Positions 36,992 through 63,054 are shown, counted from the stretch's first letter. The stretch is 64,000 nt of DNA from an archaeon (GCA_041659525.1 JBAZYC010000001.1:725554-789553); one strand, 5' to 3'. Numbers and translations are program-made. The notes: generated from the sequence alone by a model not told the origin.

Positions 36992-36998
36992 CATTTAG

Positions 36999-43822: not shown

Positions 43823-44713
43823 GTGGTTCTAATGCAAGAGGATGGTGTGTTTATTCCCTCAGAAAAGGCTTCTTCGCCTGGGTTTTCAATTAAAATGGAT
43901 AACTTGGGTTCTACTCAAATAAAACCTGAAAAAGATTCTCTTACTGGGGAAAAAGAAGATGATTATTCTGTTCCTGAAAAAGAAATAGTGGTAGAAAGAG
44001 TTAATGATGGTTCCGATACTTCAAGAGTAAAAACTGGGATAGTTGGTTTTGATGAACTAATTGAAGGTGGATTTGAAAGAGAATCAATTGTGTTAACCGT
44101 TGGTTCTAGTGGGACTGGTAAAACAATTTTAAGTATGCAATTTCTTTACAAAGGAATAGTAGATTATAACGAACCAGGAGTTTTCATTTCTTTTGAAGAA
44201 GAAAGAGATTCGCTCTTCAAGCATTCTTTGCAATTTGGTTGGGATTTTGAGAACTTAGAAAAAAATGATAAATTTAGATTACTAGTGTTTAAGCCTCACC
44301 AAGTTCCAAAAATTTTGGAAGAAGGGGGAGGACAAATCAGAGATGCTTTGGCTGAAGTTGGAGCAAAGAGAGTAGTTATTGATTCAATCACTGCTTATGG
44401 ATTACTTTTTAGAGATGAGTATAAAAGAAGAGAAAAGATTTTAGAGTTTTTTAATTTACTTAGAAGATGGGGAGTAACTTCAATGATTGTTTGCGAGGAT
44501 TCTCCAAAAGATGTTGAAGAACAAGAAGGAAGTATTGGATTTATTAGTGATGCAATTGTTTCTCTTTACTACGAGCATGATAAAGAAAAAGGAATTAGAA
44601 TTCATTCACTTGAAGTGTTAAAGATGCGCGGAACAAAACACACAAACAAAGTTTGCGCAATGAACTTTGAAAAAGATGGAATTACAGTCTACCCTGACGT
44701 AGAGGTATTCTGA
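43823..44713 (+). CDS. KaiC/RecA-superfamily ATPase
   Basis: Walker A VGSSGTGKT inside the typical KaiC-like context TGIVGFDELIEGGFERESIVLTVG. Confidence 0.65.
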   Translation: MVLMQEDGVFIPSEKASSPGFSIKMDNLGSTQIKPEKDSLTGEKEDDYSVPEKEIVVERVNDGSDTSRVKTGIVGFDELIEGGFERESIVLTVGSSGTGKTILSMQFLYKGIVDYNEPGVFISFEEERDSLFKHSLQFGWDFENLEKNDKFRLLVFKPHQVPKILEEGGGQIRDALAEVGAKRVVIDSITAYGLLFRDEYKRREKILEFFNLLRRWGVTSMIVCEDSPKDVEEQEGSIGFISDAIVSLYYEHDKEKGIRIHSLEVLKMRGTKHTNKVCAMNFEKDGITVYPDVEVF

Positions 44714-44799
44714 TTATCAGGGTCTACCCTGACGTAGAAGTGTTTTAGAAAATTACTTAGCTAATCTTTATTCAGTTTTTTTATTTTTCTGATTTTTTT

Positions 44800-45384
44800 T
44801 CATGCTTTTTCATCAGCAAGCGCGATAGTTGAAACGTAGGTGCTTGAGTAATCATATACTTTGTCAGAGAATTCTTTTGCAAGATCAATTATTTTTTGAT
44901 CAGTGGATTCATTTATAGTAAAAATAATTGCAGAGTTTTCTTCGAGTCTAGTTTTGTTACTAAATAAGTGCAAGAATTTTCCAAGAACCTCTCTTTTATT
45001 ATAAATTGCCATTACATTTAGTGCATCAAAAATAATTACTGTTTCGCCAGGAACTTTTTTTTCTGCTCTTTCAACAGCTATTTGAATATTAGTTAAATCT
45101 GAAGCATTGTTTACTGAAATTATGCTTGAAAAATAAGTGTTTGGGTCTTTTGAAAAAGCATCAATTATTACTATTCTTCCAAAATAATTCTTATTTACTT
45201 TTTGAAGTATTTCTTCCCCCGGTCCGCTCATTGAAACAAATATAATAGAGTATTTTTTTTGAGCAAGAATAGTTTCAATTGCAAAATCAATTGAGGGTTT
45301 TAATTGTTTTTGGTTTAAAACAACAAGTGAAATGTTCTTGTCCAAATTGACAAGAGCTTCTTTCAAAAAGAAAACGTTTTGCAT
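44800..45384 (-). CDS. Degenerate KaiC-like/DUF835-like protein (no Walker A)
   Basis: 194 aa. Shares a pattern (…IIDAFS…IIFDALNVMAIY…IIFTINES) with the 59026..59706 ORF. Confidence 0.35.
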   Translation of the reverse strand: MQNVFFLKEALVNLDKNISLVVLNQKQLKPSIDFAIETILAQKKYSIIFVSMSGPGEEILQKVNKNYFGRIVIIDAFSKDPNTYFSSIISVNNASDLTNIQIAVERAEKKVPGETVIIFDALNVMAIYNKREVLGKFLHLFSNKTRLEENSAIIFTINESTDQKIIDLAKEFSDKVYDYSSTYVSTIALADEKA

Positions 45385-45472
45385 ACTGAGATTAAGTGTT
45401 TTTCTTAATAAAAACCTTACTTGAAAACCCTCTAGTAATTAATAAATACCATTTAACTCCTTTATTCTTCTG

Positions 45473-48400
45473 ATGAACCCTCTAAGTAGTAATAAGGCAA
45501 TTTCTAATGCAAATAAAGAGTTAAACCAAAAAGGGCAAACAGCAATAGAGTTACTACTTATTCTTTCTGTTTGTGTGGTAGCTCTAGCAATAATTTATTC
45601 TCTTTATTACCAACAAGTAGATTTATCCAATTCTTCAAAAGAATTGACTACTTCTAAAAATACTATTCAGCGACTTATAAACACTGCTAATACTTTGTAT
45701 CTTTCAGGGGCTGGTTCAAAATCTCGTGTTTGGGTTGATTTACCTGATTCGTTAATAATGAGTGGAGCAAATATTATTGGGCGAGAAGTTTCGCTAAGAC
45801 TTTCAAACGGAACGGATATTTTTGGATCTTCTGATGTAAATTTTTTAGGGGATTGGAAAAAAAGGGATGGAAATTATATTACTGGGGGATATTATGCTAA
45901 TTTGGTTTTCAATGGAACTGTTGTAGAAATTTTTTATGATGATTTTGAAGTAAGTAATGAGAGTATTTACATTTCAGCAAAACAAGGCTCTACTACTCAA
46001 AAATCTTTTACAGTGCGGAATAATTCTTCTTACCCAGCGGTTTTTTGGTTGAGTTCAAATTTTTCTCATTCTCCTTTTGCTTCGATTTTAATTGAAACTA
46101 GTGATAGTTATTTTTCTCTCGCCTCAGGTGAATCAAAAATAATTGATTTTAATGTAGTGCTCGCTCTTGCAGCTTCAGGGAATTTTGCAGGAAATATTGA
46201 AATAATTGGTCAAATAAATGATGGATTAGTGGATACTAATATCACTAAATTTGTTTCTGTTTCAGTTGAATCTTTTTTAGAAATAAAAGAATTAATGGCT
46301 TATCCTAACTCAACTTCTTTCTCTTCTTTTTCAGGAATTTTAAATACAAAAAATTTTTCAATTTGCAATACTAGTTCAAATACTATTTCAGATATTACTT
46401 GGAGCAAAGACGGGAATGCTGATGCAAATGCATCAGGATGGTTTTCTCTTCCAACAATTACTAATATTGGGGCTAGTCAATGTACTTCTTTTGATTTAAA
46501 TATTTTAGTTCCAGTCGGAACTGCATCTATGTTGTATGATGCAAATATTACTGCTCATTATAATTCTTTAGCTTCTTCTACAAGCGCTTACATTTATGTT
46601 ACTGTTAATAATCCTTTAATTCCAAGTTCTTATTTCCTTTCAGTTACTCAAAATACTTTTCCAAACAATTATTCTAACTCAAATTTTGTTTCACAAAGAA
46701 CTGATGATAATTCTTGGGGGGCAACTGGGGAGATTGATTGGAATACTCAACTAGTAAATGCAATTTCTTCGCAAGCAAGAGCTTTGGGTTCTGATAATAA
46801 TGTTGCTGGTCTTTGGGACGCGAATTTAATTGCGGTTTATCACTTAGATGGAAATTTAGTTGATTCAAAAAATTCAAATGATCTTACTAACACGGGAAGT
46901 ACTCCAACAACTAGTGGGATGTTTGGATCGCTTGGTTATTCATTTAATGGTTCAAGTCAAAAATTATCAAAAACTTCAGGAGTTTCTTGGGATATTACTG
47001 GGACTCCAACTAAAAGTTATTCTTTTGGAGGGTGGTTTAAACCTTCTGTACTTAGTGGTATTTCAGGAATGTCTTTGTCTGCAACTGTTTCAGTAATAAG
47101 ACTTGCTTGTTCTAGTTCTTCAGGGGTTTGGATTATACAAAATGTTGCTGGTTATTCTAATGCCTCTGGTGGAGTTTGTGTAATAGGTAAATGGCAACAT
47201 ATATTTGGTACTTATGATAAAGATACTAATAGATTAACCCTTTACCAAAATGGGGTTAGAGTTGCAACAGCAATTGCAGATTATAATGGGAATAATACTG
47301 GTGCTACTGCTGACGGAATAAATATTGGTAATTCTCAAAATTATTTTGCAGGGGCTATTGATGAAGTACTTGCTTTTGACAAAACTCTTTCTGAAAGTCA
47401 AGTTCAAGCAATTTATGATTCTCAAAGAGCAAAATTTGATTCTAATTTAGTTGCTTATGTTAAGTTCAATGATTTTAATGGAACTAGTACTATTGAAGCT
47501 GCAAGGGGACTAACAGTTGGTTCCTATAATTCAACTGGATTCACTTCTGGAATGTGGGATTCTAATGCAGTTACACTTGATGGAACTAATGATCATGCAA
47601 TTATTTTTACAGGGCAGGATAATAATTTCAAATATAAGGGAGGGGATATGAGTATTTCTGTTTGGACTGTTCCATTTGCAGATACTGACGGGGGTTATTT
47701 AGTTTCAAAACCTTGGAATGCTGGAGGGGTGTATAATTATTGGGTTAAAGTTGCTGATAGAAATATTAATGTTGTTCTTTACGGGTCAAATGGAACAAGT
47801 ATAACAACCCCTTATGTATTGAACAATTTTCAATGGAATCAAGTGGTAATTGTTTTAACTTCTGATAGAAATATTTATACTTATGTTAATGGAGCTCTTG
47901 TGAATAGATTTCCACATTCTATTACTAATTGGACTACTATTCCTGGTGCAGGGGACATAAATACAAATTTAGCAATTGGATCAATTTATCCTTATGGTAC
48001 TTGGTCCGGGAGTACTACTCTTGCCTACAAAGGAATTATTGATGAAGTAAAAATGTATACAAAAGCTCTTACTCAAGCAGAAATAATTGCGGATTATAAT
48101 TCTTGGTTAGTGAACAAATTTGTTGATTCAAATATTATTGATTCGAATTCAACTGCTGATTGGAATTCAATTAGAGTAAACAAAACTGCTGGATATAATT
48201 TTGGAAAAGAGATTGAGGATTGGAATATTCTAAAATCAATGGGAATTAATGAACTTGGAAATAATGTTGATTCAAATTATTTGTACAATGATGTTAATCT
48301 AATTGGGTTATGGCATTTCAATGACAAAAATTCTAGTGGATGGGTTTTGAATTCAAAAACAAATTTAAGAGATGGAAATTTGTTTGGGAAGGCAGATGTT

Positions 48401-49813
48401 AATGGAGTTGGACTTTGGGACACTAATGCGGGGTTCTTTGATGGAAATGGTGATTATTTTGAAGCAGTAAATCGACAGGATTATAATGCAGGTAATAATT
48501 TTTCAATTTCAGCTTGGATTTATCCAAAAGCAAACGGGGCTGCAAATGGTGGGGATATTATTACAAAATTTTATTCAGCTAGTGTGCCTTATGTTTCTTA
48601 CGGATTAGAATTTCTAAGTACTAATGTACTCGCATTCGGTTCGGGTGCAACAGATAATTCTTACACAAATACTACTACTACTCCTGTTTTAACTTTGAAT
48701 AATTGGTATAATGTGGTTGCAACTTATGATGGTTCACTTAAGAAAATATATCTAAATGGAGTACTTGTTGATTCTGATTCTTATACAAAAACAATTATTT
48801 ACAATACAGGTAATGTTAATATTGGTTGTTGGACCGGGAATCTTTCTGGAAATTGTTTTAATGGTTATATTGAAGAGCCTTCAATTTGGAATCGTGTTTT
48901 ATCCGCTTCAGAAATTTCTGATTTATACACTTACCAAAAACCAATGTTTCAAAATGGTTTAATTGGTTTGTGGCATTTGAATGGAAACTTGAATGATTCG
49001 AGTGGGAACTCAAATAATGGTACTCTTAATGGAGGGAGTATAACTAATGGGTTGTGGGGTACTAATGCATATTTGTTTAATACTACCAATGATTATTTTA
49101 CAGTTGCCAATAGCACTAAATTAAATCCAAAAAGATTTGCTATTAGTGCTTGGATTTATCCTTATCAAAGAGATAAATTAATGCAAATATATTCGCATAG
49201 AGATTCAGCTAATACTGGAAGTGCTTTTTTATTAATTTCTTCAAATAACACAATAATGCTTGATACTTATAATACTAGTCAGAGTAGATTGAATCCAGCA
49301 AGCACTTTTTTAGATTCTATTGATGTTAACAAGTGGATTCATGTTGTTGCTGTTTCGGATGGGGCTAATAAGAGCATTTACAAAAATGGGGTTTTGTTTA
49401 ATAGTGCTGCTTGGGCTTTTGATACTAACACTGCTTCTTCAAATGTTTATATCGGCTCAGATTCACTTAACCCTAATACTTATAATTTTGTTGGAAAAAT
49501 AGAGGAAGTTGGGTTGTGGGAAAGAGGATTGAGTGCCGCCGAAGTAAAAGACCTTTATAGAAAAGGGGTTTCTAAACTCGATTTGAATGTTTATTCTTGC
49601 TCTGATGCGAGTTGTGTTACTAAAACTGGTTCGCAATATATTTCTGATGTGAATAATGGCCTCTGGACTTCTTTGAGTTCTAGTGTAACTAATTCGCGTT
49701 ACCTTGGAGTAGATGCTTTCTTTAAACCCTCAACTAGTTTTGCTGACCAAAACGCTAATATTTTTTGGACTGGGGCTTTCTTGAAAGATTTGAATGTATT
49801 CTTTTACAAGTAG
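45473..49813 (+). CDS. Giant (1446 aa) surface protein with class III (prepilin-type) signal peptide and three LamG/concanavalin-A-like lectin repeats
   Basis: N-terminus …KGQTAIELLLILSVCVVALAII fits the archaeal prepilin cleavage motif. Three repeats of about 200 aa start at about 46800, 48300 and 48950 (e.g. LIGLWHLNGNLNDSSGNSNNGTLNGG…). The protein is Asn/Ser/Thr-rich. Confidence 0.7.
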   Translation: MNPLSSNKAISNANKELNQKGQTAIELLLILSVCVVALAIIYSLYYQQVDLSNSSKELTTSKNTIQRLINTANTLYLSGAGSKSRVWVDLPDSLIMSGANIIGREVSLRLSNGTDIFGSSDVNFLGDWKKRDGNYITGGYYANLVFNGTVVEIFYDDFEVSNESIYISAKQGSTTQKSFTVRNNSSYPAVFWLSSNFSHSPFASILIETSDSYFSLASGESKIIDFNVVLALAASGNFAGNIEIIGQINDGLVDTNITKFVSVSVESFLEIKELMAYPNSTSFSSFSGILNTKNFSICNTSSNTISDITWSKDGNADANASGWFSLPTITNIGASQCTSFDLNILVPVGTASMLYDANITAHYNSLASSTSAYIYVTVNNPLIPSSYFLSVTQNTFPNNYSNSNFVSQRTDDNSWGATGEIDWNTQLVNAISSQARALGSDNNVAGLWDANLIAVYHLDGNLVDSKNSNDLTNTGSTPTTSGMFGSLGYSFNGSSQKLSKTSGVSWDITGTPTKSYSFGGWFKPSVLSGISGMSLSATVSVIRLACSSSSGVWIIQNVAGYSNASGGVCVIGKWQHIFGTYDKDTNRLTLYQNGVRVATAIADYNGNNTGATADGINIGNSQNYFAGAIDEVLAFDKTLSESQVQAIYDSQRAKFDSNLVAYVKFNDFNGTSTIEAARGLTVGSYNSTGFTSGMWDSNAVTLDGTNDHAIIFTGQDNNFKYKGGDMSISVWTVPFADTDGGYLVSKPWNAGGVYNYWVKVADRNINVVLYGSNGTSITTPYVLNNFQWNQVVIVLTSDRNIYTYVNGALVNRFPHSITNWTTIPGAGDINTNLAIGSIYPYGTWSGSTTLAYKGIIDEVKMYTKALTQAEIIADYNSWLVNKFVDSNIIDSNSTADWNSIRVNKTAGYNFGKEIEDWNILKSMGINELGNNVDSNYLYNDVNLIGLWHFNDKNSSGWVLNSKTNLRDGNLFGKADVNGVGLWDTNAGFFDGNGDYFEAVNRQDYNAGNNFSISAWIYPKANGAANGGDIITKFYSASVPYVSYGLEFLSTNVLAFGSGATDNSYTNTTTTPVLTLNNWYNVVATYDGSLKKIYLNGVLVDSDSYTKTIIYNTGNVNIGCWTGNLSGNCFNGYIEEPSIWNRVLSASEISDLYTYQKPMFQNGLIGLWHLNGNLNDSSGNSNNGTLNGGSITNGLWGTNAYLFNTTNDYFTVANSTKLNPKRFAISAWIYPYQRDKLMQIYSHRDSANTGSAFLLISSNNTIMLDTYNTSQSRLNPASTFLDSIDVNKWIHVVAVSDGANKSIYKNGVLFNSAAWAFDTNTASSNVYIGSDSLNPNTYNFVGKIEEVGLWERGLSAAEVKDLYRKGVSKLDLNVYSCSDASCVTKTGSQYISDVNNGLWTSLSSSVTNSRYLGVDAFFKPSTSFADQNANIFWTGAFLKDLNVFFYK

Positions 49814-49887
49814 TCTTCTTTTGAAGACTACAAGTAGTCTCCTTTGGAGAATACAAGTAGTAGTCCTTTTTTGGACTACAAGTAAGT
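49805..49887 (+). repeat. Four tandem copies of TACAAGTAG (includes the stop codon of the preceding gene), each followed by a short hairpin
   Basis: tacaagtag-[agtcttc ttt gaagact]-tacaagtag-[tctcc ttt ggaga]-a-tacaagtag-[tagtcc tttttt ggacta]-caagtaag. Confidence 0.6.
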
Positions 49888-49988: not shown

Positions 49989-51059
49989 TTGGTTTTGTTG
50001 AAAAAAAATGTTTTTAGAAAAAAAGGAAGAGCTCAATCCTCTCTTGAAACTCTGTTGATTCTAGCTACTGCTTTGTTTATTTTAACTGCACTTGTTTCAA
50101 TGGTTTATGATCAATTAGATTCAGGTAATTTACAGCAACAACAAAAAATGGGTTCAAATGTGTTAAGGACTCTTGCAAAAGAAATTGATGATACTTATTT
50201 TTTGGGCCCAGGGACAGTAAAAAATATTACTATTACAATACCTGGGATGGTTGATTATAATAAATCTTATATTGAAGGAAAAGGGCTTGTGCTTAATGTG
50301 GGGGGAAGTGATTTTGTTGCTTCGACAAAAATAGAAGCAAGAGGAATTTGGCCTAACACTAGCGGTTCTTATGTTTTTCAAATAACTGCTTATGATGATT
50401 ACGTTGGAGTATCAACTCAAGTAGTTAGTTTCAATCCTAGTCAAGTGAATGAAGTTATTCCTCAATTTAGTTCAACTGATGTTAATGTCTCTATTACAAG
50501 TAGTAGTAATAGTGATTTGAATTATTTAATAAATATTGAATTTCCTTCTAGTGGAGAAAATTTAGTAACCCTAACCTCAAGTTTGAGTTCAATTTTAGTT
50601 CCTGCTAATGCAAGCGCAATTGTTCCACTAACTTTGAATTGTGAGAGAGATTCTTTTGGTTCGTATAATGGAAAAATAGTTTTTGTCCCAGTTAATTCGA
50701 CTGATTTTAATGTTTCTGTTCCGATTGATCTTGTTTGTTCTTCTTCCCAAACAAAACTAGGGATTTACCCTATTTACAAATTAATTAATTCAGTTAAATT
50801 AATTTCTAGCACAGATTCTCTTCTTGTGTGTAATGGTTCTTCAGGAGATTTTTCAAATTCAGTAGTTTCTTTTACTGGGGAGGCTGCAAGGTATATTTTC
50901 TCGGATTTTAATGGAACGATTACTGCAGAGTCTTGTCGTTCACTTGATTTAATAATAAATCCAGTTCCTGATGCAAATAATTTTAGTGGAAAGATTTATG
51001 TTTATTCAAGTGGTTATTCTGCAGTAGCAGATTTGAATTTAGTGGTTAGCGTGAGTTAA
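49989..51059 (+). CDS. Pilin-like protein with class III signal peptide
   Basis: MVLLKKNVFRKKGRAQSSLETLLILATALFILTALV; the rest is a Ser/Thr/Asn-rich beta-type domain. Confidence 0.55.
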   Translation: MVLLKKNVFRKKGRAQSSLETLLILATALFILTALVSMVYDQLDSGNLQQQQKMGSNVLRTLAKEIDDTYFLGPGTVKNITITIPGMVDYNKSYIEGKGLVLNVGGSDFVASTKIEARGIWPNTSGSYVFQITAYDDYVGVSTQVVSFNPSQVNEVIPQFSSTDVNVSITSSSNSDLNYLINIEFPSSGENLVTLTSSLSSILVPANASAIVPLTLNCERDSFGSYNGKIVFVPVNSTDFNVSVPIDLVCSSSQTKLGIYPIYKLINSVKLISSTDSLLVCNGSSGDFSNSVVSFTGEAARYIFSDFNGTITAESCRSLDLIINPVPDANNFSGKIYVYSSGYSAVADLNLVVSVS

Positions 51060-51071
51060 AGGGTTTTATTT

Positions 51072-55245: not shown

Positions 55246-56145
55246 TTACTTCACAACCTTTGGTACTTTTGATCTTACAAGCATTATCATAGCTAATTGT
55301 ATTGAAAGAGAAAGCACTACGATTAATATTACTGCTTCGGGACCAATTCCTGATCCTCCTACTGAGGAAGCAATTACTAAGAAAGTTATTCCTAATGAAG
55401 GCATTGCTGCTGCAACTATTAAATAAACTAATGTCCAAAGATTTAGTTCTGCAGAGTAAGCTTTGATTGCATCTATTTGTTGAGCTACTAATGCTTCTAC
55501 TTGGGATTCTAATGCATTTACTATTGATCCTCCGCTTCTCATAGTGGTTATTATTTGCCAAATTGTTTTCTTTAGTACTTCTGATTTTGTTCTAAAAGCA
55601 AGTTTTTCAAGTGCTTGTGTTTCGCTCATTCCTGAGTTAACATCTTTAACAACAAAAGTAAATTCAGCTGATACTTGTCCATAATTTGATTTTGAAATCA
55701 TTTTCATTGCTTCAAATAAACTAATTCCTGAACTAAGTTGGATTAGCATTGTTCTAATCGCAAATAATAGTTCTTGGTCAACCATGTTTGCAAGTTGGAA
55801 AGCTGCAATTTTTGGATACATTAAGTGGAATATTAGCATTGAAATAAATGAACCAATACTAGCAACGAGCATTAAGGTAATTGTAAATACTCCTACTTGT
55901 TTTGAAATAATTGCTCCAAAAGCAAGTCCTACAAAGAGAAACATTACTGCATAAAGAAGAGCGGATACTAGTGAAGCTAGGCAGTATCTTTCCACATCAA
56001 TATCCATTTCGGCTTTTTGCAAATCATACTTTAGTGAGAAAACAACTTTTGAAAGAAATCTCCCGAAAAAGAGGTATCTTTCACTAAATTGCTTTGCTTT
56101 CTCTATTGGGAAAAGCATCATTACTGGTGTTTTTTCTTTTTCCAT
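55246..56145 (-). CDS. TadB/FlaJ-like (T2SSF-domain) membrane protein
   Basis: 299 aa. Same architecture as the neighbouring gene; immediately upstream with no gap. Confidence 0.55.
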   Translation of the reverse strand: MEKEKTPVMMLFPIEKAKQFSERYLFFGRFLSKVVFSLKYDLQKAEMDIDVERYCLASLVSALLYAVMFLFVGLAFGAIISKQVGVFTITLMLVASIGSFISMLIFHLMYPKIAAFQLANMVDQELLFAIRTMLIQLSSGISLFEAMKMISKSNYGQVSAEFTFVVKDVNSGMSETQALEKLAFRTKSEVLKKTIWQIITTMRSGGSIVNALESQVEALVAQQIDAIKAYSAELNLWTLVYLIVAAAMPSLGITFLVIASSVGGSGIGPEAVILIVVLSLSIQLAMIMLVRSKVPKVVK

Positions 56146-56247: not shown

Positions 56248-58836
56248 TTACATTGAAAAATTTTCTTTATTTGCTGCGTTTTGTTGATTTACTGTTTGCA
56301 TTGCACTAGCATCATCTTTTTCTCCTTGCATCATTTTTCTGATTTCTTCAATAGGTGTATTTTTTTTTGCGAGTTTTTTGATTTGTTCAGGGTATGAGTA
56401 AAACATTTTTACAATATACCCAATATCATCTAAATCATTTAGATCTATTCTCTTTAACCATTCAAGAATTTCTTTTCTTTCAGCTATTTCTCTATTAATA
56501 TCATCCTCAGTCATTCCTGTGTGCATGTTTAGTAGGGTGATTAGTTTTGTGGGTTTGTTTAGTTTTTCCCACGAATCAGTTCTTGGGAGCCATTTATAAA
56601 CAGTATTAATTTGTAGTCCCTGTCCGCTACTTGTTTGTTCTATTTCGGATATTTCATAAGTTCTTCTTTTGTTTGTTTTTCTATCACGGTACTGTACTAC
56701 AATTAAATCAATTAGTTCAATTTGCATTAATGGAATATTAATTGGTGGTTCAGCTAGTCTTCTTAGTACTTGGTAACCTGAGTTTGCATGTAGGGTAGAG
56801 TAAATACTGTGTCCTGTTTCAATTGCTTCCATTAGTACTTCTGCCTCTTTTTTTCTTCTAATTTCTCCCACAATTATTCTATCGGGTCTCATTCTTAGTG
56901 AGGTAACCATTAAGTCAAGCATTGTTACTTCACCTAGTCCTTCTGGGTTTGGAGATCTTGTAACCATTGGTATCCAATTCCAATCAAGGTACTTTGGCAG
57001 AATTATTTCTCTTACATCTTCAATTGAAAGTATTCTGTGGTAAGTGGGTACGAGTGCAAGCATTGAGTTTAGTGCACTTGTTTTTCCACTCGCAGTTCCT
57101 CCTGCAATTAATATATTCATTTCGTATTGCATTGCTAGCCAAAGCATTGCGGCCATTTCTGAATTCATGGTGTGTGCTTTTCCGATAAAATCAACAATAG
57201 TCCAAGGTTTTCTTGCAAATCTTCTAATAGTAATTGTGTTTCCTTCTGAAGAAATTGGGAATAGGGTTGCATTAACACGATCTCCTGAAAGCAAGTGTGC
57301 ATCAAGAATCGGACTTAGGTTAGTTATTTCTCTTCCAATTTTTCTTCCGATTTGTGAAGAAAAATTATTTATGTCTTCTTCAGTTCCTGGCATTAAATTT
57401 GTTTTTAACCAACCATGAATTCTATGGTAAACTGTAATAGGGGTTTTTGCTGAATTTATTCCCACTTCTTCCAGCATATCATCTCCCATTATTATCTCAA
57501 TATCTCCAAGTCCATACATTTCATGTAAGAGTACTCCTGAAAGCATGTTGAGTAAATCTTTTGGTGCTTCGGGGAAATATTTTGAAAGATGAGAATTTAA
57601 TTCAAAAAAGAATCTTTCTTTTAGTTTTTTTGATTTTTTTGGGTCAACAATTTCTTCAATTTCTATGGGCATGTTTTCGGCTACTTCGTCTTTAATAAAT
57701 TCTAAAAATCTTTTAGTGTATTTTCCAATGCTGGGCATTTCAAGTGCATAAATGGGTCTTGCTTCTTCAGGATCAAGTACTATTGAAATTTGAGCAGGAA
57801 CATAATCTACTTCTATTTGATAAGTTTCAAGGACTTTTCCAACCGGAATTTTAGTTAATTTTGAAGGAGTAGGATTTTTTAGAATTAAAATTGGTTTTTT
57901 AGTTAAACTTGTAGGGTACTCTATTTCAACTACTCCGTCGCTTTCAAACATCTTTGAAATCTTTTCAACTATTAATGGATCTATTTGCAAGTAATTTGCA
58001 ATTTCACCTGTATCAATTTTTTTATATTTTTCGAGTAGTTCAAATATTTTATCAACAGGGGTTTTTAGTGAATTTATTTTATTTTCGATTCTTTTTTGTT
58101 CTTCTGCATTTCTTTTTTGTTTTGAAAAAGCACTTTCTTCTTCAGCTTCAAAATCTTGGGTGATGGGTTCTTCTATTATTGGTTCATCCATCCAACTATA
58201 GTGCTCTTCTTTTTGGCTCAAAAAAGAATCTTTGTCTTTAGTTTCTTTTGTTGAATTAACTTCAATTGGTTTTTGAATTAATGGTTCTTGTTTTTGATTA
58301 GCTGAAAGCACAACTGGTTTTGCATTAAGCGAGCTTTGCATTGAAATAGCTCCTTCGTTAGAATTTTCTTGTTGAACAATTTTTTCTGGTGTTATTGACT
58401 GCTTACCAAAATCAGTGCTCGATAGAGTTTCTTTCTTTTTATCAGTAGTAATGTTTGAAGATTTTAAATTCAAAAGTTTGTCAAAAGAACTTGAAGCGGA
58501 AGTTGAAGTTTGAGTACTATCTTTTTTAGTAATATTTGAATCCGAATTTTCTTTAGATTTATTTAGTTCTTTAGGCGTACCATAATTTGGTTCTGAATTT
58601 AGTTCTTTTACTGAAGTTACTTGAGTAAATATCTTTTGTTCTTCTTTAAATGCTGCTAGATCTACTTTTGATTGAGTGCTTTTTGAAGTGAACGGTTTTT
58701 TTTCTTCAAAAGGGAATTTTGGGGTCTGTGCCGAAGGCTGTTTTGTATTCTCTTGACCCATAGTTAAGCGTTTTATCTCGTCAAGGTCCTTATTTTTTTC
58801 TTTCCCTGAAAAAGGAAAAATCGACATTTTGTTCAC
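56248..58836 (-). CDS. FlaI/TadA/VirB11-family secretion/pilus-assembly ATPase with long low-complexity N-terminal extension
   Basis: Walker A AGGTASGKTSALNSM in a VirB11/GspE-like core within the C-terminal approx. 450 aa. The N-terminal approx. 400 aa are S/T/K/E/Q-rich and low complexity. Confidence 0.8.
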   Translation of the reverse strand: MNKMSIFPFSGKEKNKDLDEIKRLTMGQENTKQPSAQTPKFPFEEKKPFTSKSTQSKVDLAAFKEEQKIFTQVTSVKELNSEPNYGTPKELNKSKENSDSNITKKDSTQTSTSASSSFDKLLNLKSSNITTDKKKETLSSTDFGKQSITPEKIVQQENSNEGAISMQSSLNAKPVVLSANQKQEPLIQKPIEVNSTKETKDKDSFLSQKEEHYSWMDEPIIEEPITQDFEAEEESAFSKQKRNAEEQKRIENKINSLKTPVDKIFELLEKYKKIDTGEIANYLQIDPLIVEKISKMFESDGVVEIEYPTSLTKKPILILKNPTPSKLTKIPVGKVLETYQIEVDYVPAQISIVLDPEEARPIYALEMPSIGKYTKRFLEFIKDEVAENMPIEIEEIVDPKKSKKLKERFFFELNSHLSKYFPEAPKDLLNMLSGVLLHEMYGLGDIEIIMGDDMLEEVGINSAKTPITVYHRIHGWLKTNLMPGTEEDINNFSSQIGRKIGREITNLSPILDAHLLSGDRVNATLFPISSEGNTITIRRFARKPWTIVDFIGKAHTMNSEMAAMLWLAMQYEMNILIAGGTASGKTSALNSMLALVPTYHRILSIEDVREIILPKYLDWNWIPMVTRSPNPEGLGEVTMLDLMVTSLRMRPDRIIVGEIRRKKEAEVLMEAIETGHSIYSTLHANSGYQVLRRLAEPPINIPLMQIELIDLIVVQYRDRKTNKRRTYEISEIEQTSSGQGLQINTVYKWLPRTDSWEKLNKPTKLITLLNMHTGMTEDDINREIAERKEILEWLKRIDLNDLDDIGYIVKMFYSYPEQIKKLAKKNTPIEEIRKMMQGEKDDASAMQTVNQQNAANKENFSM

Positions 58837-59025: not shown

Positions 59026-59706
59026 ATGGTTAGTGGCTTTTCAATTACTCCTGAACAGGAAAAAGCGTTTGAAAGTATTCTTTCAAATAAAGATTCTGTT
59101 TTAGCTTCTGTTTCAAAGGAATCTGAAAAGTTTAATGCATTTAATGCTTTGGTTGGTTCGCAAAGAGTGCTTACTGAAATTAAAACAAAAATTTCTACTA
59201 ACTTTTCAGGTCAAGCACTTGTTGTTTGTGATCCTTCTAATTCAAAAGAGGTTCTTCTTGCTTTAACCACGTTTGTAAAGCAATCAAATCAAATTCCTGT
59301 TTTGGTTCTAATGAATCATAATTACAAAACAATTCTCTCTGATTTAAAGAAAGCGGGTGTTGAGGATAGAGTTATTATTATTGATACGGTTTCAAAGAGT
59401 ATTGCTACTGTGGAAGAAACTAGAGAGCTTATTTTTGTTGATTCGTTAAGAAACCTTACCCAGCTTCAAATAAAGATGTTTAATATAATGGAAAAAAATC
59501 ATGGTTGCGCATTTATTTTTGATTCAATAGCAATGCTTGAACTTTACCATGAAGAAGAAATAGTTTTCAAATTCATTTACTCTTTAACAAAGATTCTCCA
59601 CAAAAATAATGTTAATGGATTTTATATCTCAACAACTTCAGAGTCTTCTGGAAAGTTAGGGCAATTCTTCGAAGAAACTATTTTGCTCAAAAAGTTCTTG
59701 GATTAG
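59026..59706 (+). CDS. Degenerate KaiC-like/DUF835-like protein
   Basis: 226 aa. Paralogous pattern to 44800..45384 (…VIIIDTVSKSIA…FIFDSIAMLELY…). Confidence 0.35.
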   Translation: MVSGFSITPEQEKAFESILSNKDSVLASVSKESEKFNAFNALVGSQRVLTEIKTKISTNFSGQALVVCDPSNSKEVLLALTTFVKQSNQIPVLVLMNHNYKTILSDLKKAGVEDRVIIIDTVSKSIATVEETRELIFVDSLRNLTQLQIKMFNIMEKNHGCAFIFDSIAMLELYHEEEIVFKFIYSLTKILHKNNVNGFYISTTSESSGKLGQFFEETILLKKFLD

Positions 59707-59775
59707 AAATCAACTAGGACTTTTTCTTTCAAAAAAGCTGTGTGCAATAATTAAATACTCCTTTTTCTCTTATAG

Positions 59776-60495
59776 TTGTGCATGTATTTCCCTAAACAAG
59801 TTGTTTACTCTTTTTTTGTAGTGCTCTTTTCTTTGGTATTTTTTGGGATGTTATTTTTAGTTTTCTTTTCACAAGCTCTTGATGTGGTTGATCCTTCCGT
59901 TTCAATTATTGGCTCAGATATAGTTCTGAAAATGACTATTAAAAATATTTCAACGCACGCTGTAGACGGGGTTAAAGTTGAAGTAATTAATGGTGAAGAA
60001 GCAAAATCATTTTATCTAAAAGGGGTAAATGATGGGGAATTTTCTTCTCTTGCGCCTGGGGAAAAATATGATTTTGTAGCAGCAATTCCTATTTCGGAAA
60101 GTTTGGCTTATTCTGTAAGCATTTCAGCTCCTTTCAATAGGGCAATCCCTCTTAACTTTACTCTTGAGCAAACTACAATTGACCCTGTTAAAGCTGAAGT
60201 TTCTTTGCCTTCAAAACTTTACTTAAACGAAGCTTACACTTATTCAGTAAAACTATGTAATGTTTCAGGGAGTGATTTATCTGAAGTTATTTGGTTAGAA
60301 AATGCTCCTGCTGGTTTGTTTAAAGAAAATTTCTTTGAAAGAAGTATTTCGCTTAAAGCAGCACAATGTACTACGATTTTTTCAACACTTACTCCAATAA
60401 AGTTAAATGACTCAAGTATTGGATTTATTCTAAAGATTGGTACTATTGAGAAAAAGAGTTCTAAAGCCCTTCAAATAGTGGAGCGGTCTGCTTAA
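59776..60495 (+). CDS. Membrane-anchored extracytoplasmic protein
   Basis: An N-terminal TM, then a beta-rich domain; no family recognised. Confidence 0.35.
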   Translation: MCMYFPKQVVYSFFVVLFSLVFFGMLFLVFFSQALDVVDPSVSIIGSDIVLKMTIKNISTHAVDGVKVEVINGEEAKSFYLKGVNDGEFSSLAPGEKYDFVAAIPISESLAYSVSISAPFNRAIPLNFTLEQTTIDPVKAEVSLPSKLYLNEAYTYSVKLCNVSGSDLSEVIWLENAPAGLFKENFFERSISLKAAQCTTIFSTLTPIKLNDSSIGFILKIGTIEKKSSKALQIVERSA

Positions 60496-60586
60496 TTGAG
60501 TTGGTGAGATTTAAATACTCGGGAGCATTTATACTCTAATGAGTACAGGTACTCTAGAGCGTTTAGTATTGTATAAATTAAGTTAG

Positions 60587-61243
60587 TTGATAATAATGAC
60601 TAAAGCAGATTCAATTATTGAAATAATTCAAAAGATGGTTCAAGAGGGCCAATCTAGTGACAAGATTGTTGCTACTCTTCACGATCTTGGGGTTAGCGAT
60701 GACCAGGCAAAAAGACTTTTACTAATTGCAGAAGCAGACACTTTTACTTTACTAAAAAAAGAAATTAATAATCTTGTAAGAGAAGAGGTTTATTCTCAAA
60801 AAAAAGATTTTGAGGATATGATTAAACAAGATTTGAAGCAAATCGAGGCGGAAGAAAAATTAAAAACTAGTGAAATTGCTCATGAAGAATTAAAAGAAGT
60901 AAAAAATGATGTTCTTGAACAATCAAGAGGGTTTGAAGGAAGGGTAAACAAAGTTATTAATGATTCTCAAAAAACTGTTTCACTTGTAAGAGTAGCACTT
61001 GATTCATTAAACAATAGACTTTCACAAATAGAACTTGATGTTGAACAAATGAAGGTTCATAAATTTAGAAAAAAATCAATGTTTTTCTCTTACACTATGC
61101 TTAGTTTGGGGGCAATGATTTTGTTAATTGCCTTATTTTTATTGTTCATGAATTTTGCAAAATTAGATGTCTCTCAAATAGTAATAATCTCTATTCTAAT
61201 TCTTGCAAGTGTAACTTTAATGTTTGCTTCAATAATTGGATAA
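60587..61243 (+). CDS. Coiled-coil protein with C-terminal TM anchors
   Basis: 218 aa. A central heptad-like region and two C-terminal hydrophobic helices. Confidence 0.35.
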   Translation: MIIMTKADSIIEIIQKMVQEGQSSDKIVATLHDLGVSDDQAKRLLLIAEADTFTLLKKEINNLVREEVYSQKKDFEDMIKQDLKQIEAEEKLKTSEIAHEELKEVKNDVLEQSRGFEGRVNKVINDSQKTVSLVRVALDSLNNRLSQIELDVEQMKVHKFRKKSMFFSYTMLSLGAMILLIALFLLFMNFAKLDVSQIVIISILILASVTLMFASIIG

Positions 61244-61466
61244 AATTTAGTAAGTTCTTTGTCTTTTTGCACTTCAAGTTAGTGCCAAATTCTAGCTAAA
61301 TATACTTAAAAACAGCTTAATTTTCAAAATAAAGCATTTTTCACTTTTATTGAAGAAAGGCACTATTTTTTTAATCTTTTTATAAAATCGTCATTTTTTT
61401 GATATTCAATGCCTTTTTAAGTGTTTTCTTGAGGGTTTTACTTATTCACAAATTAGATTTACAAAC

Positions 61467-62348
61467 TTGGTTAATTGGGGGGTTTTGAGCATGGCTGGAA
61501 TGGACAAATTGAAAGCAAAAGAAGAGGAAGAGGACGAGACTAGTGAAGAAGAAACCCTAGAAACTGAAAAAACTATTACTGCGCTTGATAATAACGAATC
61601 TGTTGAGGGCGATTCTAATCCAAGTCACTCTGTTAATGATGATGGGGAAGAAAATGATGAGGAAGAAACTTCTGCTGAGGTAAGCGAAGATAATGACAAA
61701 ATGCCTTTCCCAAGAGCTACTATTACTAAACTTGTGAGAAGAAATATTTCTAAAGGTAAACAAATTAAAGGAACAGTTAAGGATGAAATGAATTTTTGGG
61801 TTGCTCAAATGGTTGAGCGAATAGCAAAGAAAATGAATTCCCAACCCTATACTTTTGTTAATTACGATATGCTAAAAGATGCAGTTGCTCCTTATGAGGA
61901 TATTCAAGGAATAAACAAACAAAGAGAGGTTCTTGTAGCCAAAATTAATGCAATTAAAACTGAATGTGACACTGTAATTAATGAAATTGATACTGAAATT
62001 AAATCTAAATCAGTTTCACTTAAATTAGAACAAGAAGAAATGCCTTTCCCTAAAGCAACTATTACTAATAAACTTAGAAAGTTCCTTGGGGACGGTAAAA
62101 CAATTAAGGGTCCTGTAAAAAGAGGACTAAATGTTTGGATTGGTAGTGTAGTTGAGAGAGTTTCAAAGAAAATGGATTCCTATCCTTACCCTTACATTGA
62201 TCGCTCAATGTTCAAAGAAGCAGTTGAACCCTACGAAGCGGTAGGCGAAATAGAACTTGAGAAAGAAAGAATAATTCAGCAAATGGAATCAATGAAAACC
62301 ATGTGCGATTTATTAGTAATGGAAATTGACAGAAAGTTTAAAGTTTAA
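61467..62348 (+). CDS. Acidic protein with two internal repeats of about 100 aa (possible histone-fold-like halves)
   Basis: Repeats MPFPRATITKLVRRNISKGKQIKGTVKDEMNFWVAQMVERIAKKM…PYE and MPFPKATITNKLRKFLGDGKTIKGPVKRGLNVWIGSVVERVSKKM…PYE. The N-terminal stretch is D/E-rich. Confidence 0.4.
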   Translation: MVNWGVLSMAGMDKLKAKEEEEDETSEEETLETEKTITALDNNESVEGDSNPSHSVNDDGEENDEEETSAEVSEDNDKMPFPRATITKLVRRNISKGKQIKGTVKDEMNFWVAQMVERIAKKMNSQPYTFVNYDMLKDAVAPYEDIQGINKQREVLVAKINAIKTECDTVINEIDTEIKSKSVSLKLEQEEMPFPKATITNKLRKFLGDGKTIKGPVKRGLNVWIGSVVERVSKKMDSYPYPYIDRSMFKEAVEPYEAVGEIELEKERIIQQMESMKTMCDLLVMEIDRKFKV

Positions 62349-62475
62349 AATTTTAATTTAAAATAAAATTTTTCTTTAAACTTTATTCTTTTTTTTATTT
62401 TTTTAAAAATCTAGTTTTTTTTTAGTTTTTTTTCTATTTTTTTTTCTTTAAACTTTTTTAATTTGTATTTTAAAA

Positions 62476-63054
62476 TTAGAGTGTTAAATTTAATTTTTCT
62501 CTGACTTTTTTTGCCATTGTTGCATTTGGATTAAAGAAAAGCATTGCGTCGCACTGACCAATATTTTTTGTGTGATTTTCTTTTAATGAAGCTTTTTCAA
62601 AATCAATTATAACTGGGGAGTAAATCGCTTCATGAGTATTTGGTTCATTAGTTTTTTTTACTAAAATATTTTTTCCTATTTGCAATTGGTTGTGACTTAG
62701 ATTTACTTTATTGAGTGCATAAAGTTGTTTGTATAATTCTTTAATAAAATTGTACAACTGAGTTGCATTAACTTCTTCATTAAAAGAATTACTCAAAATC
62801 CAATCAAATAATTTTTGTCCTTTAACATATTCCATTACCACAAAATTTTCTTTGTAATTTATTTCTTTTATTTTTGGTCCCACTCCTACTGAGTTTGCGA
62901 GCAGCAACATTTTTCCTTCTCTTTCTGCTAAGTTTTTTCGATTAGATTTTTCTCTAACTTCTTTTAACACAAATTCTTTTCCTTTATTGTCTTTTACTAT
63001 CCAAATGTAAGAACTCCAACCCTTAGCAATTTGATTGATTTTTGTGTATTTCAT
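62476..63054 (-). CDS. Bud32/PRPK-like small protein kinase (KEOPS subunit-like)
   Basis: 192 aa. Pattern GWSSYIWIV…KEFVLKEV… / …FVVMEYVKGQKLFD… / …IIDFEKASL resembles RIO/Bud32 minimal kinases. Confidence 0.5.
   Translation of the reverse strand: MKYTKINQIAKGWSSYIWIVKDNKGKEFVLKEVREKSNRKNLAEREGKMLLLANSVGVGPKIKEINYKENFVVMEYVKGQKLFDWILSNSFNEEVNATQLYNFIKELYKQLYALNKVNLSHNQLQIGKNILVKKTNEPNTHEAIYSPVIIDFEKASLKENHTKNIGQCDAMLFFNPNATMAKKVREKLNLTL

Follow-up and report, generated by a model that had tools for sequence, protein, structure and literature searches.

A probable system 1 type IV pilus locus encoding a candidate modular lectin pilin in a Diapherotrites-like archaeon

Positions 43823-61243 of the window, the 64-kb stretch of archaeal DNA analysed here, hold a complete and well-preserved gene cluster of the adhesive type IV pilus kind, which belongs to a DPANN (Diapherotrites-like) archaeon with a small genome. 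The locus probably encodes a system 1 (Epd/Tad-like) archaeal type IV pilus equipped with a modular lectin pilin, the 1446-residue protein C, in which four LamG domains follow a pilin-like N-terminal carrier. The interpretation offered by a first-pass annotation of the sequence, namely a pilus with a lectin-domain pilin as candidate adhesin, is supported.

Gene content and conservation of the locus

The cluster is formed by an ATPase of the T2SSE/FlaI family (L), two half-size T2SSF platform proteins (J and K), a single-domain KaiC (A), two degenerate KaiC-like paralogues (B and M) and, side by side, seven proteins whose N-termini are of the class III (prepilin) type (C to I; Table 1). All the gene classes listed in the first-pass annotation occur in place, with two adjustments; the core machinery and KaiC were identified through sequence searches of Pfam, NCBIfam and the PDB. 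The class III proteins, counted there as "at least six", are indeed present and number seven; the two "DUF835-like degenerate ATPases" do exist as weak KaiC/DUF7504/DUF835-like proteins, but the DUF835 label rests on sub-threshold matches, since all Pfam matches of B and M fall under gathering scores. These two proteins are paralogues of one another (BLASTP E 3e-7), B does not have the Walker A lysine, and the gene found at the position of B in the related locus L007 has a recorded DUF835 match.

Table 1. Features of the locus, with positions counted from the first nucleotide of the window; a slash marks the predicted cleavage site.
Feature	Coordinates	Strand	Basis
A: single-domain KaiC-family ATPase	43823..44713	+	Pfam PF06745, E 1.9e-57
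B: degenerate KaiC/RecA-like protein (DUF7504/DUF835-like)	44800..45384	-	sub-threshold DUF7504 (E 1.9e-4) and DUF835 (E 1.4e-3)
C: 1446-aa modular pilin-like candidate adhesin	45473..49813	+	Laminin_G_3, E 4e-72
C leader peptide, residues 1-21, predicted cleavage KG/QTAIE	45473..45535	+	rule-based scan
C carrier module, residues 22-379	45536..46609	+	AlphaFold2, Foldseek, family alignment
C linker, residues 380-444, predicted disordered	46610..46804	+	pLDDT 30-42 for residues 381-460
LamG domain 1, residues 445-651	46805..47425	+	Pfam Laminin_G_3; boundaries by repeat HMM
LamG domain 2, residues 652-878	47426..48106	+	Pfam and repeat HMM
LamG domain 3, residues 937-1155	48281..48937	+	best Pfam stretch 990-1149; repeat HMM
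LamG domain 4, residues 1156-1365	48938..49567	+	AlphaFold2, pTM 0.70
C-terminal domain of C, ~80 aa, conserved CxxxxC (LYRKGVSKLDLNVYSCSDASC)	49568..49810	+	homologue comparison
Three tandem hairpins, each after TACAAGTAG	49805..49884	+	TRF, period 23
D: 356-aa "bare" carrier-module paralogue of C (RA/QSSLE)	49989..51059	+	BLASTP to C N-terminus, E 1e-11
E: minor pilin-like (KG/QLSFE)	51072..51491	+	motif scan; orthologue motifs conserved
F: minor pilin-like (RG/QFFSPD)	51491..52135	+	motif scan and orthologues; weak DUF7287 match
G: minor pilin-like (KG/FIITVD)	52132..52581	+	motif scan and orthologues
H: minor pilin-like (KG/FLFTIS)	52578..53471	+	motif scan and orthologues
I: 154-aa probable major pilin (KG/QGTIEYLVIIAIVVVIALVVVG)	53610..54074	-	Pfam Class_IIIsignal, 26.7 bits vs cut-off 23.7
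J: TadC-like platform protein, one T2SSF domain	54193..55245	-	PF00482, E 1.7e-14
K: TadB-like platform protein, one T2SSF domain	55246..56145	-	PF00482, E 1.1e-15
L: 862-aa secretion ATPase	56248..58836	-	PF00437 (T2SSE), E 1.9e-32
M: second degenerate KaiC/DUF7504-like protein	59026..59706	+	sub-threshold KaiC and DUF7504 matches
N + O: conserved neighbour genes	59776..61243	+	order kept beside M and the ATPase gene in L001, L002, L004

The catalytic part of L occupies approximately residues 400-862, behind a low-complexity N-terminal extension, and it bears the hallmarks of the VirB11/FlaI family, Walker A and B together with Asp and His boxes (GGTASGKTS and TGHSIYSTLHANS). In NCBIfam its best match is FlaI (260 bits) and the second is TadA (161 bits), the VirB11 model being matched as well, while in the PDB it matches afGspE (221 bits), FlaI (161) and CpaF (138); its nearest named relatives are exclusively MAG proteins of Ca. 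Diapherotrites and Micrarchaeota. Protein A has an intact Walker A motif (GSSGTGKT) and resembles KaiC_arch_3 (NCBIfam, E 1.1e-45), with ArlH reaching just E 4.9e-8, and in the PDB it matches KaiC (E 3.9e-58) and PH0186 (E 6.6e-37); it is likely a regulator. Downstream, N (239 aa) has a membrane anchor at its N-terminus and O (218 aa) a coiled coil followed by C-terminal membrane segments; a Pfam search assigned neither of them to a family.

An archaellum was also considered and rejected: the platform is split rather than being a single two-domain ArlJ, A scores 33 bits against an ArlH cut-off of 215, and L scores 260 bits against a FlaI cut-off of 550. A Pfam search of the locus proteins found no member of the ArlF or ArlG families.

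The gene order is conserved among Diapherotrites-like metagenome contigs (L001, L007, L009/L010), and the division of the platform into two genes with one T2SSF domain each is found likewise in L007, L008, L009 and L010. In the distant L008, KaiC is followed by the carrier, then by four small genes, the ATPase gene and the two T2SSF genes, and the position of A is kept there as well as in L007, L009 and L010, while M adjoins the ATPase gene in L001, L002, L004, L007 and L009. L002 and L004 retain the block of ATPase and platform genes with no adjoining pilin block, and therefore the machinery and the pilins form separable blocks.

Class III N-termini and the expected peptidase

A FlaFind-type rule was run over all 111 open reading frames of the window with at least 60 aa. 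It is passed by the seven contiguous genes C to I and by three dubious cases among the remaining 104 frames: one is a Sec-type signal, another has its motif at residue 66, and the third lies out of frame within gene C. The strict FlaFind expression, in what we take to be its correct form, is fitted by C, D and G, and the relaxed rule by E, F, H and I, so that the N-termini regarded as prepilin-like in the first annotation do fit prepilin-peptidase motifs on formal analysis. Four of the seven (C, D, E and I) have the pattern [KR][GA]/Q...E(+5), which is the signature of EppA/Epd-type pilins; in F, Q at +1 is combined with D at +6, behind an unusually long leader of 46 aa, whilst mature G and H both start with F, and H lacks an acidic residue at both +5 and +6. 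The cleavage motifs are kept in orthologues from five related loci, including the distant L008.

Genes D to H are tightly packed, their reading frames being nearly abutting (12 nt between D and E) or overlapping by 1-4 nt (1 nt for E and F, 4 nt for F and G, and 4 nt for G and H). The first 26 residues of mature I (+1 to +26) are identical across four genomes and the remainder diverges; I is probably the major pilin.

As the first reading of the window had remarked, no prepilin peptidase is visible in it: a GxGDxK-type motif of A24 peptidases occurs in no frame of at least 80 aa of the 64-kb window, and a Pfam search with the multi-spanning ORFs of the window gave no match. The enzyme is equally absent from the ten related loci L001-L010. 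The combination of Q at +1 and E at +5 is the signature of EppA substrates in M. maripaludis (PMC4371748), and on that precedent, so far as it holds, an EppA-like enzyme is a likelier candidate than one of the PibD/FlaK type.

Architecture of protein C and its family

Protein C is deposited as MFA5931464.1 ("LamG domain-containing protein [archaeon]"), encoded on a contig of 985,290 bp. As in the N-terminal portion of modular pilins, its class III signal (KG/QTAIELLLILSVCVVALAIIY) leads into a helix, modelled by AlphaFold2 over residues 4-78, of which the mature part constitutes a hydrophobic alpha-1. The rest of the carrier consists of a beta-rich domain (83-160, pLDDT about 80-90) and two Ig-like sandwiches (164-268 and 274-379). 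In Foldseek the carrier retrieved tandem ASH/PapD-like Ig folds, generic matches confined to the Ig-like tandem and leaving out the beta-rich domain; no solved pilin matched the head domain. The model of the N-terminal part has a mean pLDDT of 74.5, with blocks between residues 20 and 380 mostly at 75-92, and both AlphaFold2 models are of moderate quality (pLDDT 74.5 and 67.6), having been built from alignments of 6-7 sequences. The extra module that defines a modular pilin (Raynaud et al., 2021) is present as the disordered linker (381-444) and the four LamG domains, and the same carrier occurs with other payloads.

Three LamG/ConA-like repeats had been proposed for this protein; the repeats are real, and there are four of them. 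The family PF13385 (Laminin_G_3, clan Concanavalin) is detected in four stretches with 241.7 bits, above the gathering score of 27.6. A spacer of 58 aa (879-936) follows the second domain, and its motif "ADYNSxL..KFVD...NYxFGxEI" is conserved in homologues. The model of LamG domain 4 matches solved ConA-like jelly rolls, the closest being the arabinan-binding domain 5hon_A (TM 0.75, rmsd 3.2 Å), and the neurotoxin HCN and trans-sialidase lectin domains also being matched; as modelled, the domain is a ConA-like jelly roll resembling carbohydrate- and receptor-binding domains. A sequence search of the PDB with C matched no solved lectin. Domains of the LamG/ConA-like type also bind proteins or serve as scaffolds, so that glycan binding is one of several roles that the array of C may have. 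The CxxxxC domain at the C-terminus is kept in all the LamG-bearing homologues examined, and its modelled fold is confident only in part. Directly 3' of the stop codon, the tandem hairpins have an RNA folding energy of -35.7 kcal/mol (z -5.45); they are absent from both L007 and L009, the two loci compared.

C belongs to an unannotated family of 277 cluster representatives with a common N-terminal carrier of ~360 aa, made up of the class III signal, a helix of ~57 residues, a beta domain and two Ig-like domains. This carrier occurs alone, as in D, or with a payload, most often 1-7 LamG domains. Aligned from end to end, D shares 42-47% identity with members of the family, among them the 2141-aa LamG protein P0006 in its N-terminal part. 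The cleavage motif is found in 114 of 150 members; of these 114, 113 have Q at +1 and 112 have E at +5. Laminin_G_3 is present in 26 of the 55 long members, and others have different binding-type domains; some family members bear GH130, 3-keto-disaccharide hydrolase or NPCBM-associated domains, and more distant LamG homologues join LamG to DUF2341.

The GH130, hydrolase and NPCBM-associated payloads just mentioned, and the arabinan-binding domain of a GH43 arabinanase as the closest structure to LamG domain 4, would suit an array that mainly captures or processes environmental polysaccharide, either on a pilus or on the surface, with no partner-cell adhesin and no need for episymbiosis; moreover, no result of this analysis places the organism on a host. 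This possibility is nevertheless judged quite improbable, given that C has no catalytic domain, that transporter and glycosidase genes are absent from the locus, and that published genomics ties the LamG expansion of DPANN archaea to host interaction (PMC5498576). A filament devoted mainly to non-adhesive functions (exchange of DNA or other material, twitching), with C as an accessory of incidental role, seems very improbable indeed: type IV filaments are functionally versatile, and pilus-mediated DNA exchange has been suggested for Micrarchaeota (PMC5498576), but the locus has no DNA-processing, Ced-like or retraction-ATPase genes, and the conserved pairing of a carrier with binding-type payloads points to binding as the selected function.

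Comparison with known systems and proposed mechanism

The assignment to system 1 (clade 1) is the best reading of gene content and motifs, as distinct from ATPase phylogeny. System 1 pili (Epd-type) have been described as having an ATPase alongside a pair of platform genes, with five or more minor pilins and with large adhesins of the ConA-like (DUF2341) type (Makarova, Koonin and Albers, 2016, PMC4858521; see also the 2026 preprint 10.64898/2026.04.22.720090). Like the Epd pilus of Methanococcus maripaludis, the present locus has one secretion ATPase, a platform divided between two single-domain genes, a small protein that is probably the major pilin, at least five class III minor pilins (here E-H plus C and D), Q at +1 and E at +5 of the cleavage site, and large ConA-superfamily adhesin-like proteins; system 1 has been reported in a few DPANN archaea, to which this locus also belongs. 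The differences are that no EppA gene lies in or near the locus (within the 64-kb window), that L has 400 residues of low-complexity extension before its catalytic part, that the adhesin is of the Laminin_G_3 rather than the DUF2341 type and has a class III N-terminus of its own, as part of a conserved carrier of ~360 aa, that a KaiC and two degenerate KaiC-like genes replace FleN/MinD, and that I, with 154 aa, has a globular part, whereas the Epd pilin is headless (~70 aa).

The split platform also recalls the bacterial Tad/Flp pilus (TadA/CpaF, TadB, TadC), and L is related to CpaF; however, L is closer to archaeal GspE2 and FlaI, and Tad pilins are Flp peptides of ~50-70 aa cleaved by TadV. 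Tad/Flp systems and PilY1 also share with the present proposal a priming role for minor pilins and a large adhesin at the tip, although PilY1 is a beta-propeller protein and not a pilin, whereas C is pilin-like.

Class III signals on large surface proteins, served by a dedicated ATPase and platform pair, are also known from the Sulfolobus bindosome (Bas system), whose substrates are sugar-binding proteins of ABC transporters. On this precedent, C and D could be envelope-anchored surface proteins, or part of a short pseudopilus, that use the prepilin pathway for insertion and processing only, and the LamG array would be an adhesin or capture device at the level of the envelope. Reviews describe archaeal non-pilin surface proteins with class III signals, the Ig-like stalk and long linker of C would suit an envelope-spanning spacer too, giant class III proteins with other payloads are encoded away from the pilin operon (1037 aa in L001, 1712 aa in L009), and L does score against the bindosome model BasE. 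That score (146 bits) is, however, far under the cut-off of 1000 and also under the FlaI and TadA scores, the locus has no genes for substrate-binding proteins or ABC transporters, and C sits in a conserved block with one major-pilin-like and four minor-pilin-like genes, all of which makes an anchored protein rather unlikely.

For a pilus-borne C, the closest precedent is PilC of S. sanguinis, an experimentally shown lectin-bearing modular pilin that has been modelled at the tip (PMC9934059). Both proteins have, in the same order, a class III signal, a pilin moiety (putative in C), one or more Ig-like domains and one or more ConA-like lectin modules, the genes of both lie with those of minor pilins in a type IV pilus locus, and tip display is proposed for both. 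PilC is bacterial, with a PilD-type motif (IPR012902), one lectin module and 52.8 kDa, whereas C is archaeal, with an EppA-type motif, two Ig-like and four LamG domains, a C-terminal domain and ~158 kDa; no sequence homology is detectable between them, and glycan binding, shown for PilC, is a putative property of C. The published census of modular pilins (PMC8179133) covered bacteria alone.

Among the DPANN archaea, "Ca. Mancarchaeum acidiphilum" Mia14 (Micrarchaeota) has an expanded set of LamG jelly-roll proteins, some of them beside type IV pilus genes, for which a role in host interaction has been proposed; of its two pilus systems, one falls in the Methanococci/Thermococci group, and the gene for its only FlaK-like peptidase lies far away from the pilus loci (PMC5498576). 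Mia14 belongs to another phylum, and the comparison is one of domain type and gene neighbourhood; the passages of that report drawn on here describe neither a class III signal nor a conserved carrier in its LamG proteins.

We propose the following mechanism. The hydrophobic N-terminal helices would put the seven prepilin-like proteins into the membrane, where a peptidase encoded elsewhere would cleave them after the G or A of [KR][GA]/Q or [KR]G/F. The ATPase L, acting through the half-size platforms K and J, would then pull the subunits from the membrane and stack them into a filament made mainly of I. The minor pilins E-H would prime assembly and would thus lie at the distal end, the likeliest cap being H, which lacks an acidic residue at both +5 and +6. 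By analogy with ArlH/ArlI, the KaiC-like A and the degenerate B and M would probably regulate the ATPase. [quoted passage not shown]

Pilus-linked LamG proteins in DPANN archaea and lectin-bearing modular pilins in bacteria have both been published already. In the present archaeon, which may be episymbiotic, the LamG array of C would have glycans or glycoproteins as its ligands, whether on a surface or on a partner cell.

Gene content and conservation of the probable pilus locus

The pilus locus (genes A to O) lies in an AT-rich window (G+C of approximately 32%) with an archaeal gene set (GatD/GatE, ATP-dependent DNA ligase, deoxyhypusine synthase and tRNA-intron endonuclease), and the named proteins most closely related to its ATPase, L, come from MAGs and bear the labels Candidatus Diapherotrites (Iainarchaeota) and Micrarchaeota. 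Its gene content, motifs, folds and synteny are directly shown by the present searches and models. The first-pass annotation had proposed a KaiC-like ATPase, TadB/TadC-like membrane proteins and a FlaI/TadA-like ATPase, and these assignments hold: A is a single-domain KaiC (PF06745, E 1.9e-57; PDB KaiC, E 3.9e-58), the platform proteins J and K contain one T2SSF domain each, and L is a T2SSE ATPase that scores highest against FlaI (260 bits) and next against TadA (161 bits), in each case under the equivalog cut-off. The solved structure closest to L is Archaeoglobus GspE (2OAP, 221 bits), followed by FlaI and CpaF. An archaellum is ruled out by the split platform, the absence of ArlF, ArlG and ArlX genes, and FlaI and ArlH scores far under their cut-offs. 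The two degenerate ATPases that had been called DUF835-like are both present (B and M) and KaiC-like; all their matches to DUF7504, DUF835 and KaiC are under the gathering scores, and the DUF835 label thus rests on sub-threshold matches. They are paralogues of one another, the Walker A lysine is missing from both sequences, and a DUF835 match is on record for the counterpart of B in the related locus L007; judged by sequence, "degenerate KaiC-like" is a fair description of both. A six-frame motif scan of the window, with Pfam run on every multi-spanning ORF, detected no prepilin peptidase, as had been noted earlier, and the same motif scan found none in ten related loci on metagenome contigs (L001 to L010).

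A recurring gene order is found in L001, L007 and L009/L010: KaiC, B, a large LamG carrier, (D), E, F, G and H, continued on the opposite strand by I, TadC, TadB and the ATPase, with M after these. The distant locus L008 (27% identity) contains DUF7504, KaiC, an 818-aa carrier, four small genes of matching sizes, the ATPase and two T2SSF genes. In L002 and L004, the ATPase/platform block is accompanied by M and the conserved neighbours N and O, without a pilin block alongside, and the machinery and pilin blocks are therefore separable modules. The reading frames of D to H abut or overlap by 1–4 nt, which suggests coupled translation.

Several other features were observed (see the table). In the N-terminal portion of L (approximately 400 residues), a winged-helix-like segment (ELLEKYKKIDTGEIANYLQIDPLIVEKISKMFESDGVVEIEYP) comes after a long low-complexity extension rich in K/E/S/T/Q; the extension is also present in close relatives (730–860 aa), while more distant ATPases have 575–650 aa and the homologue P0245 carries a MarR domain at this position. 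In L001, L002 and L004, the adjoining genes of the histone-fold-like and kinase-like proteins are syntenic with the ATPase block; nothing obvious connects them to the pilus. Farther upstream, four successive ORFs each carry a terminal PEP-utilizer "swivel" motif (GG[LI]TSHAAIV[SA]RE), the largest having four swivel units and a PPDK-like N-terminus; they form an unusual array of pyruvate-phosphate-dikinase-like fragments, and at the syntenic spot L007 has a single 849-aa gene (PPDK_N plus PEP-utilizers). The LAGLIDADG-like ORF, directly upstream of a gatB-like gene, could represent a homing endonuclease or the remnant of an intein.

Coordinates of features in the window and in related loci
Feature	Sequence	Positions	Strand	Observation
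LAGLIDADG-like ORF	window	1272-2405	+	377 aa; motifs LAYVIGFFLADGHI and ISGFCDGEGCV
gatB-like gene	window	2371-3777		start overlapped by the LAGLIDADG-like ORF
Four swivel-motif ORFs	window	25410-38069	+	2388, 475, 975 and 356 aa
Rfam C/D-box sRNA sR2 match	window	43679-43731	+	44 bits (gathering score 42); spacer between tRNA-intron endonuclease and KaiC genes
KaiC gene (A)	window	43823-44713
Repeat at 3' end of KaiC gene	window	44687-44744		final 23 nt (GTCTACCCTGACGTAGAGGTATT) recur 35 nt downstream, right after the stop codon
Hairpins between C and D	window	49805-49884		three in tandem, each after TACAAGTAG (last two codons of C plus stop)
Insertion in F leader	window	51503-51620		in frame, GC-rich
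ATPase gene (L)	window	56248-58836	-
Histone-fold-like protein	window	61467-62348	+	293 aa; two units ([ML]PFP[RK]ATIT...), coiled coil after each
Small kinase-like protein	window	62476-63054	-	Pkinase E 4e-7, sub-threshold
Giant class III protein	L001	2819-5932	-	1037 aa; RA|QGTVEY; Gly-rich/beta-helix-like
Giant class III protein	L009	3099-8237	+	1712 aa; KA|QGTMEY; LamG plus Gly_rich_2
C-type/D-type chimera	L009	10001-16528
Separate C-type and D-type genes	L010	6462-16426

Class III signals of the pilin-like proteins

[quoted passage not shown] Of the other ORFs in the window (111 in all, counting those of 60 aa or more), only three pass, namely one with a Sec-type signal, one whose site is residue 66, and one that lies out of frame within C. 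C, D and G also fit a stricter regular expression of the FlaFind type, complemented by criteria from reviews, and the seven N-termini thus pass the check proposed for the cleavage sites; I is over the Pfam Class_IIIsignal threshold. Glutamine at +1 and glutamate at +5 are found in C (KG|QTAIE), D (RA|QSSLE), E (KG|QLSFE) and I (KG|QGTIE), and the same signature characterizes the Epd pilins of M. maripaludis processed by the peptidase EppA (KGQV, KGQL, KGQI, RAQI; PMC4371748). The N-terminal motifs are kept in orthologues from L001, L007, L009 and the distant L008. In mature I, positions +1 to +26 are invariant across four genomes and the remainder of the protein has diverged, as is typically seen in major pilins. 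In H, neither +5 nor +6 is acidic.

The leader of F contains an insertion of approximately 38 codons relative to its orthologues (MIFM...RGQFF), which produces a 46-aa leader; within it are a 24-nt tandem repeat and a triplicated cleavage-like motif, "ERG[RQ]S". The idea that this repeat is a structured RNA or a mobile element was rejected (fold z of -1.26, no second copy in the window, no Rfam match).

Protein C and its carrier family

Protein C, recorded at NCBI as MFA5931464.1 ("MAG: LamG domain-containing protein [archaeon]") on a contig of 985,290 bp, had been described as a 1446-aa class III protein with three LamG repeats. LamG domains do follow a prepilin N-terminus, but there are four Laminin_G_3 stretches (E 4e-72) instead of three, placed by a repeat HMM at residues 445–651, 652–878, 937–1155 and 1156–1365 and sharing 21–37% pairwise identity. 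An exhaustive phmmer search with residues 1–440 retrieved 277 cluster representatives at E <= 1e-3 (107 at <= 1e-10), with matches that always start inside the first ~30 residues of the target. Members of this carrier family measure either ~345–370 aa or 450–2032 aa, and D (356 aa), the neighbour of C, is a bare member of the same superfamily. The motif [KR][GA]Q...E precedes the hydrophobic stretch in 114 of the 150 best members, most of the others being truncated or slightly variant. Among 55 long members, Pfam finds Laminin_G_3 in 26, and NPCBM-associated, MG2, FG-GAP, GH130 and Ig-like domains are scattered among the rest of the payloads. There are 1 to 7 LamG copies per carrier, and D-type carriers are bare or bear one or five.

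The AlphaFold2 model of residues 1–460 (six homologues in a shallow alignment; mean pLDDT 74.5) shows a helix (4–78), a beta domain (83–160), two Ig-like sandwiches (164–268 and 274–379) and disorder from 381. No solved pilin head is present among its Foldseek matches, in which Ig-like tandems (ASH/PapD-like) dominate. The LamG region matches no solved structure by sequence; for its last repeat the expected fold is recovered by prediction, since the model of the fourth LamG domain plus the conserved C-terminal ~80 residues (pTM 0.70, shallow alignment) resembles the arabinan-binding domain of AbnA (TM 0.75, rmsd 3.2 A), as well as clostridial neurotoxin HCN domains and trans-sialidase lectin domains. 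N-glycosylation sequons are not enriched in C (34, against 32 +/- 5 in shuffles). Because of the carrier-family data, the Pfam payloads and these models, C is read as a modular protein in which a prepilin signal and a predicted carrier stalk lead, through a flexible linker, into four ConA-like domains and a terminal domain. The main rival to the pilus reading given below is that C is a bindosome-like protein anchored in the envelope, which would make use of the prepilin pathway only, an explanation that we regard as improbable.

Two further giant class III proteins, in L001 and L009, combine a major-pilin-type N-terminus with other payloads, and a second type of modular-pilin carrier is therefore present in the lineage. 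At the RNA level, the hairpins between C and D (fold of -35.7 kcal/mol, z of -5.45) differ in stem sequence and all pair; they are absent from L007 and L009, and may be a terminator, an attenuator or an mRNA-stabilising element. The repeat at the end of the KaiC gene echoes the repeated 3' end of C.

L009 and L010 represent two near-identical populations, from samples 3300029286 and ERZ27250602, and the loci share 99.6–99.99% identity. In L010 a C-type gene (1150 aa) precedes a D-type LamG gene (2141 aa), and L009 has a single 2175-aa chimera, in which an in-frame deletion of 3,437 bp has fused the C-type LamG pilin gene to the adjacent D-type gene. The crossover is a 25-nt identity that encodes VGLWHLND, the start motif of a LamG repeat, in flanks that are just 77% identical. 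That P0003 could be an assembly collapse on a 146-bp repeat is unlikely, as the copies of this repeat share only 77% identity and the crossover falls within 25 nt. The larger k-mers common in metagenome assemblers exceed this length, and a real in-frame recombination is therefore the probable cause of the difference. Within C and D in the window, no recent DNA repeats (>=20 nt, high identity) that could drive recombination in this genome were found. The chimera and the range of LamG copies suggest that the adhesin is diversified in a cassette-like manner.

A broader proposal is advanced tentatively, with the odds rather against it: C and D would belong to an archaeal family, as yet unannotated, of carrier pilins built from a class III signal, a long helix, a beta domain and two Ig-like domains. 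The family would always share a conserved operon with four minor pilins, and its payload would be exchangeable, tandem paralogues recombining at the boundaries of LamG repeats and so diversifying it. The hints of exchange are the bare and loaded forms among the 277 representatives, the 1 to 7 LamG copies, the D-type carriers with none, one or five, and the L009/L010 fusion.

Comparison with known pili and proposed function

The clade 1 pili of Makarova et al. (2016; PMC4858521) comprise an ATPase, two TadC components, small major pilins, at least five class III minor pilins and EppA, together with "two large proteins ... that contain the DUF2341 domain", for which a role as tip adhesins was put forward. 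A 2026 preprint assigns this class (system 1) to methanogens, Thermococcales and DPANN (10.64898/2026.04.22.720090). The best-supported reading, and one that is reasonably probable, is that the locus encodes an Epd/Tad-like (system 1) archaeal type IV pilus with C as carrier of a lectin-type adhesin. For this pilus we infer filament formation, a subunit order, a ligand and a biological partner. I would be the main filament subunit, and E to H would be minor pilins that prime assembly and finish distal. In lacking an acidic residue at +5/+6, H resembles GspK of type II secretion pseudopili and so, by analogy, could form the cap. The role of carrier pilin would fall to C and D, C exposing a tetravalent lectin-type adhesin. 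The KaiC proteins would act as regulators, with ArlH as the analogy; archaeal pilus loci are known to be accompanied by KaiC-family ATPases (PMC4858521).

The association of LamG proteins with pilus loci in DPANN has already been published, so the present locus refines known biology and does not overturn it. According to Golyshina et al. (2017; PMC5498576), LamG-like proteins are expanded in a Micrarchaeote and "generally abundant in DPANN", some are tied to type IV pili loci, and a single FlaK-like peptidase is encoded away from these loci. The PilC protein of S. sanguinis is a proven modular pilin of bacteria, which carries Ig-like and ConA-like lectin modules and has been modelled at the tip (PMC9934059), and the census of modular pilins covers bacteria only (PMC8179133). 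In the literature compared, there appears to be no description of the conserved carrier module, of its paralogues with and without payload, or of how large the family is.

The carrier family gives a simple sequence criterion by which such adhesins can be sought in metagenomes and their payloads set against candidate hosts, and it would extend to archaea the "modular pilin" idea, so far catalogued in bacteria only. DPANN archaea are believed to need contact with other cells, for which few mediating molecules have been described. The locus provides a concrete candidate: a pilus with a lectin-type payload on a recognisable carrier, whose gene shares a conserved operon with those of a defined minor-pilin set. 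If the payload is indeed exchangeable, it would constitute a cassette system that tunes the adhesion targets of DPANN pili, and hence their range of partners.
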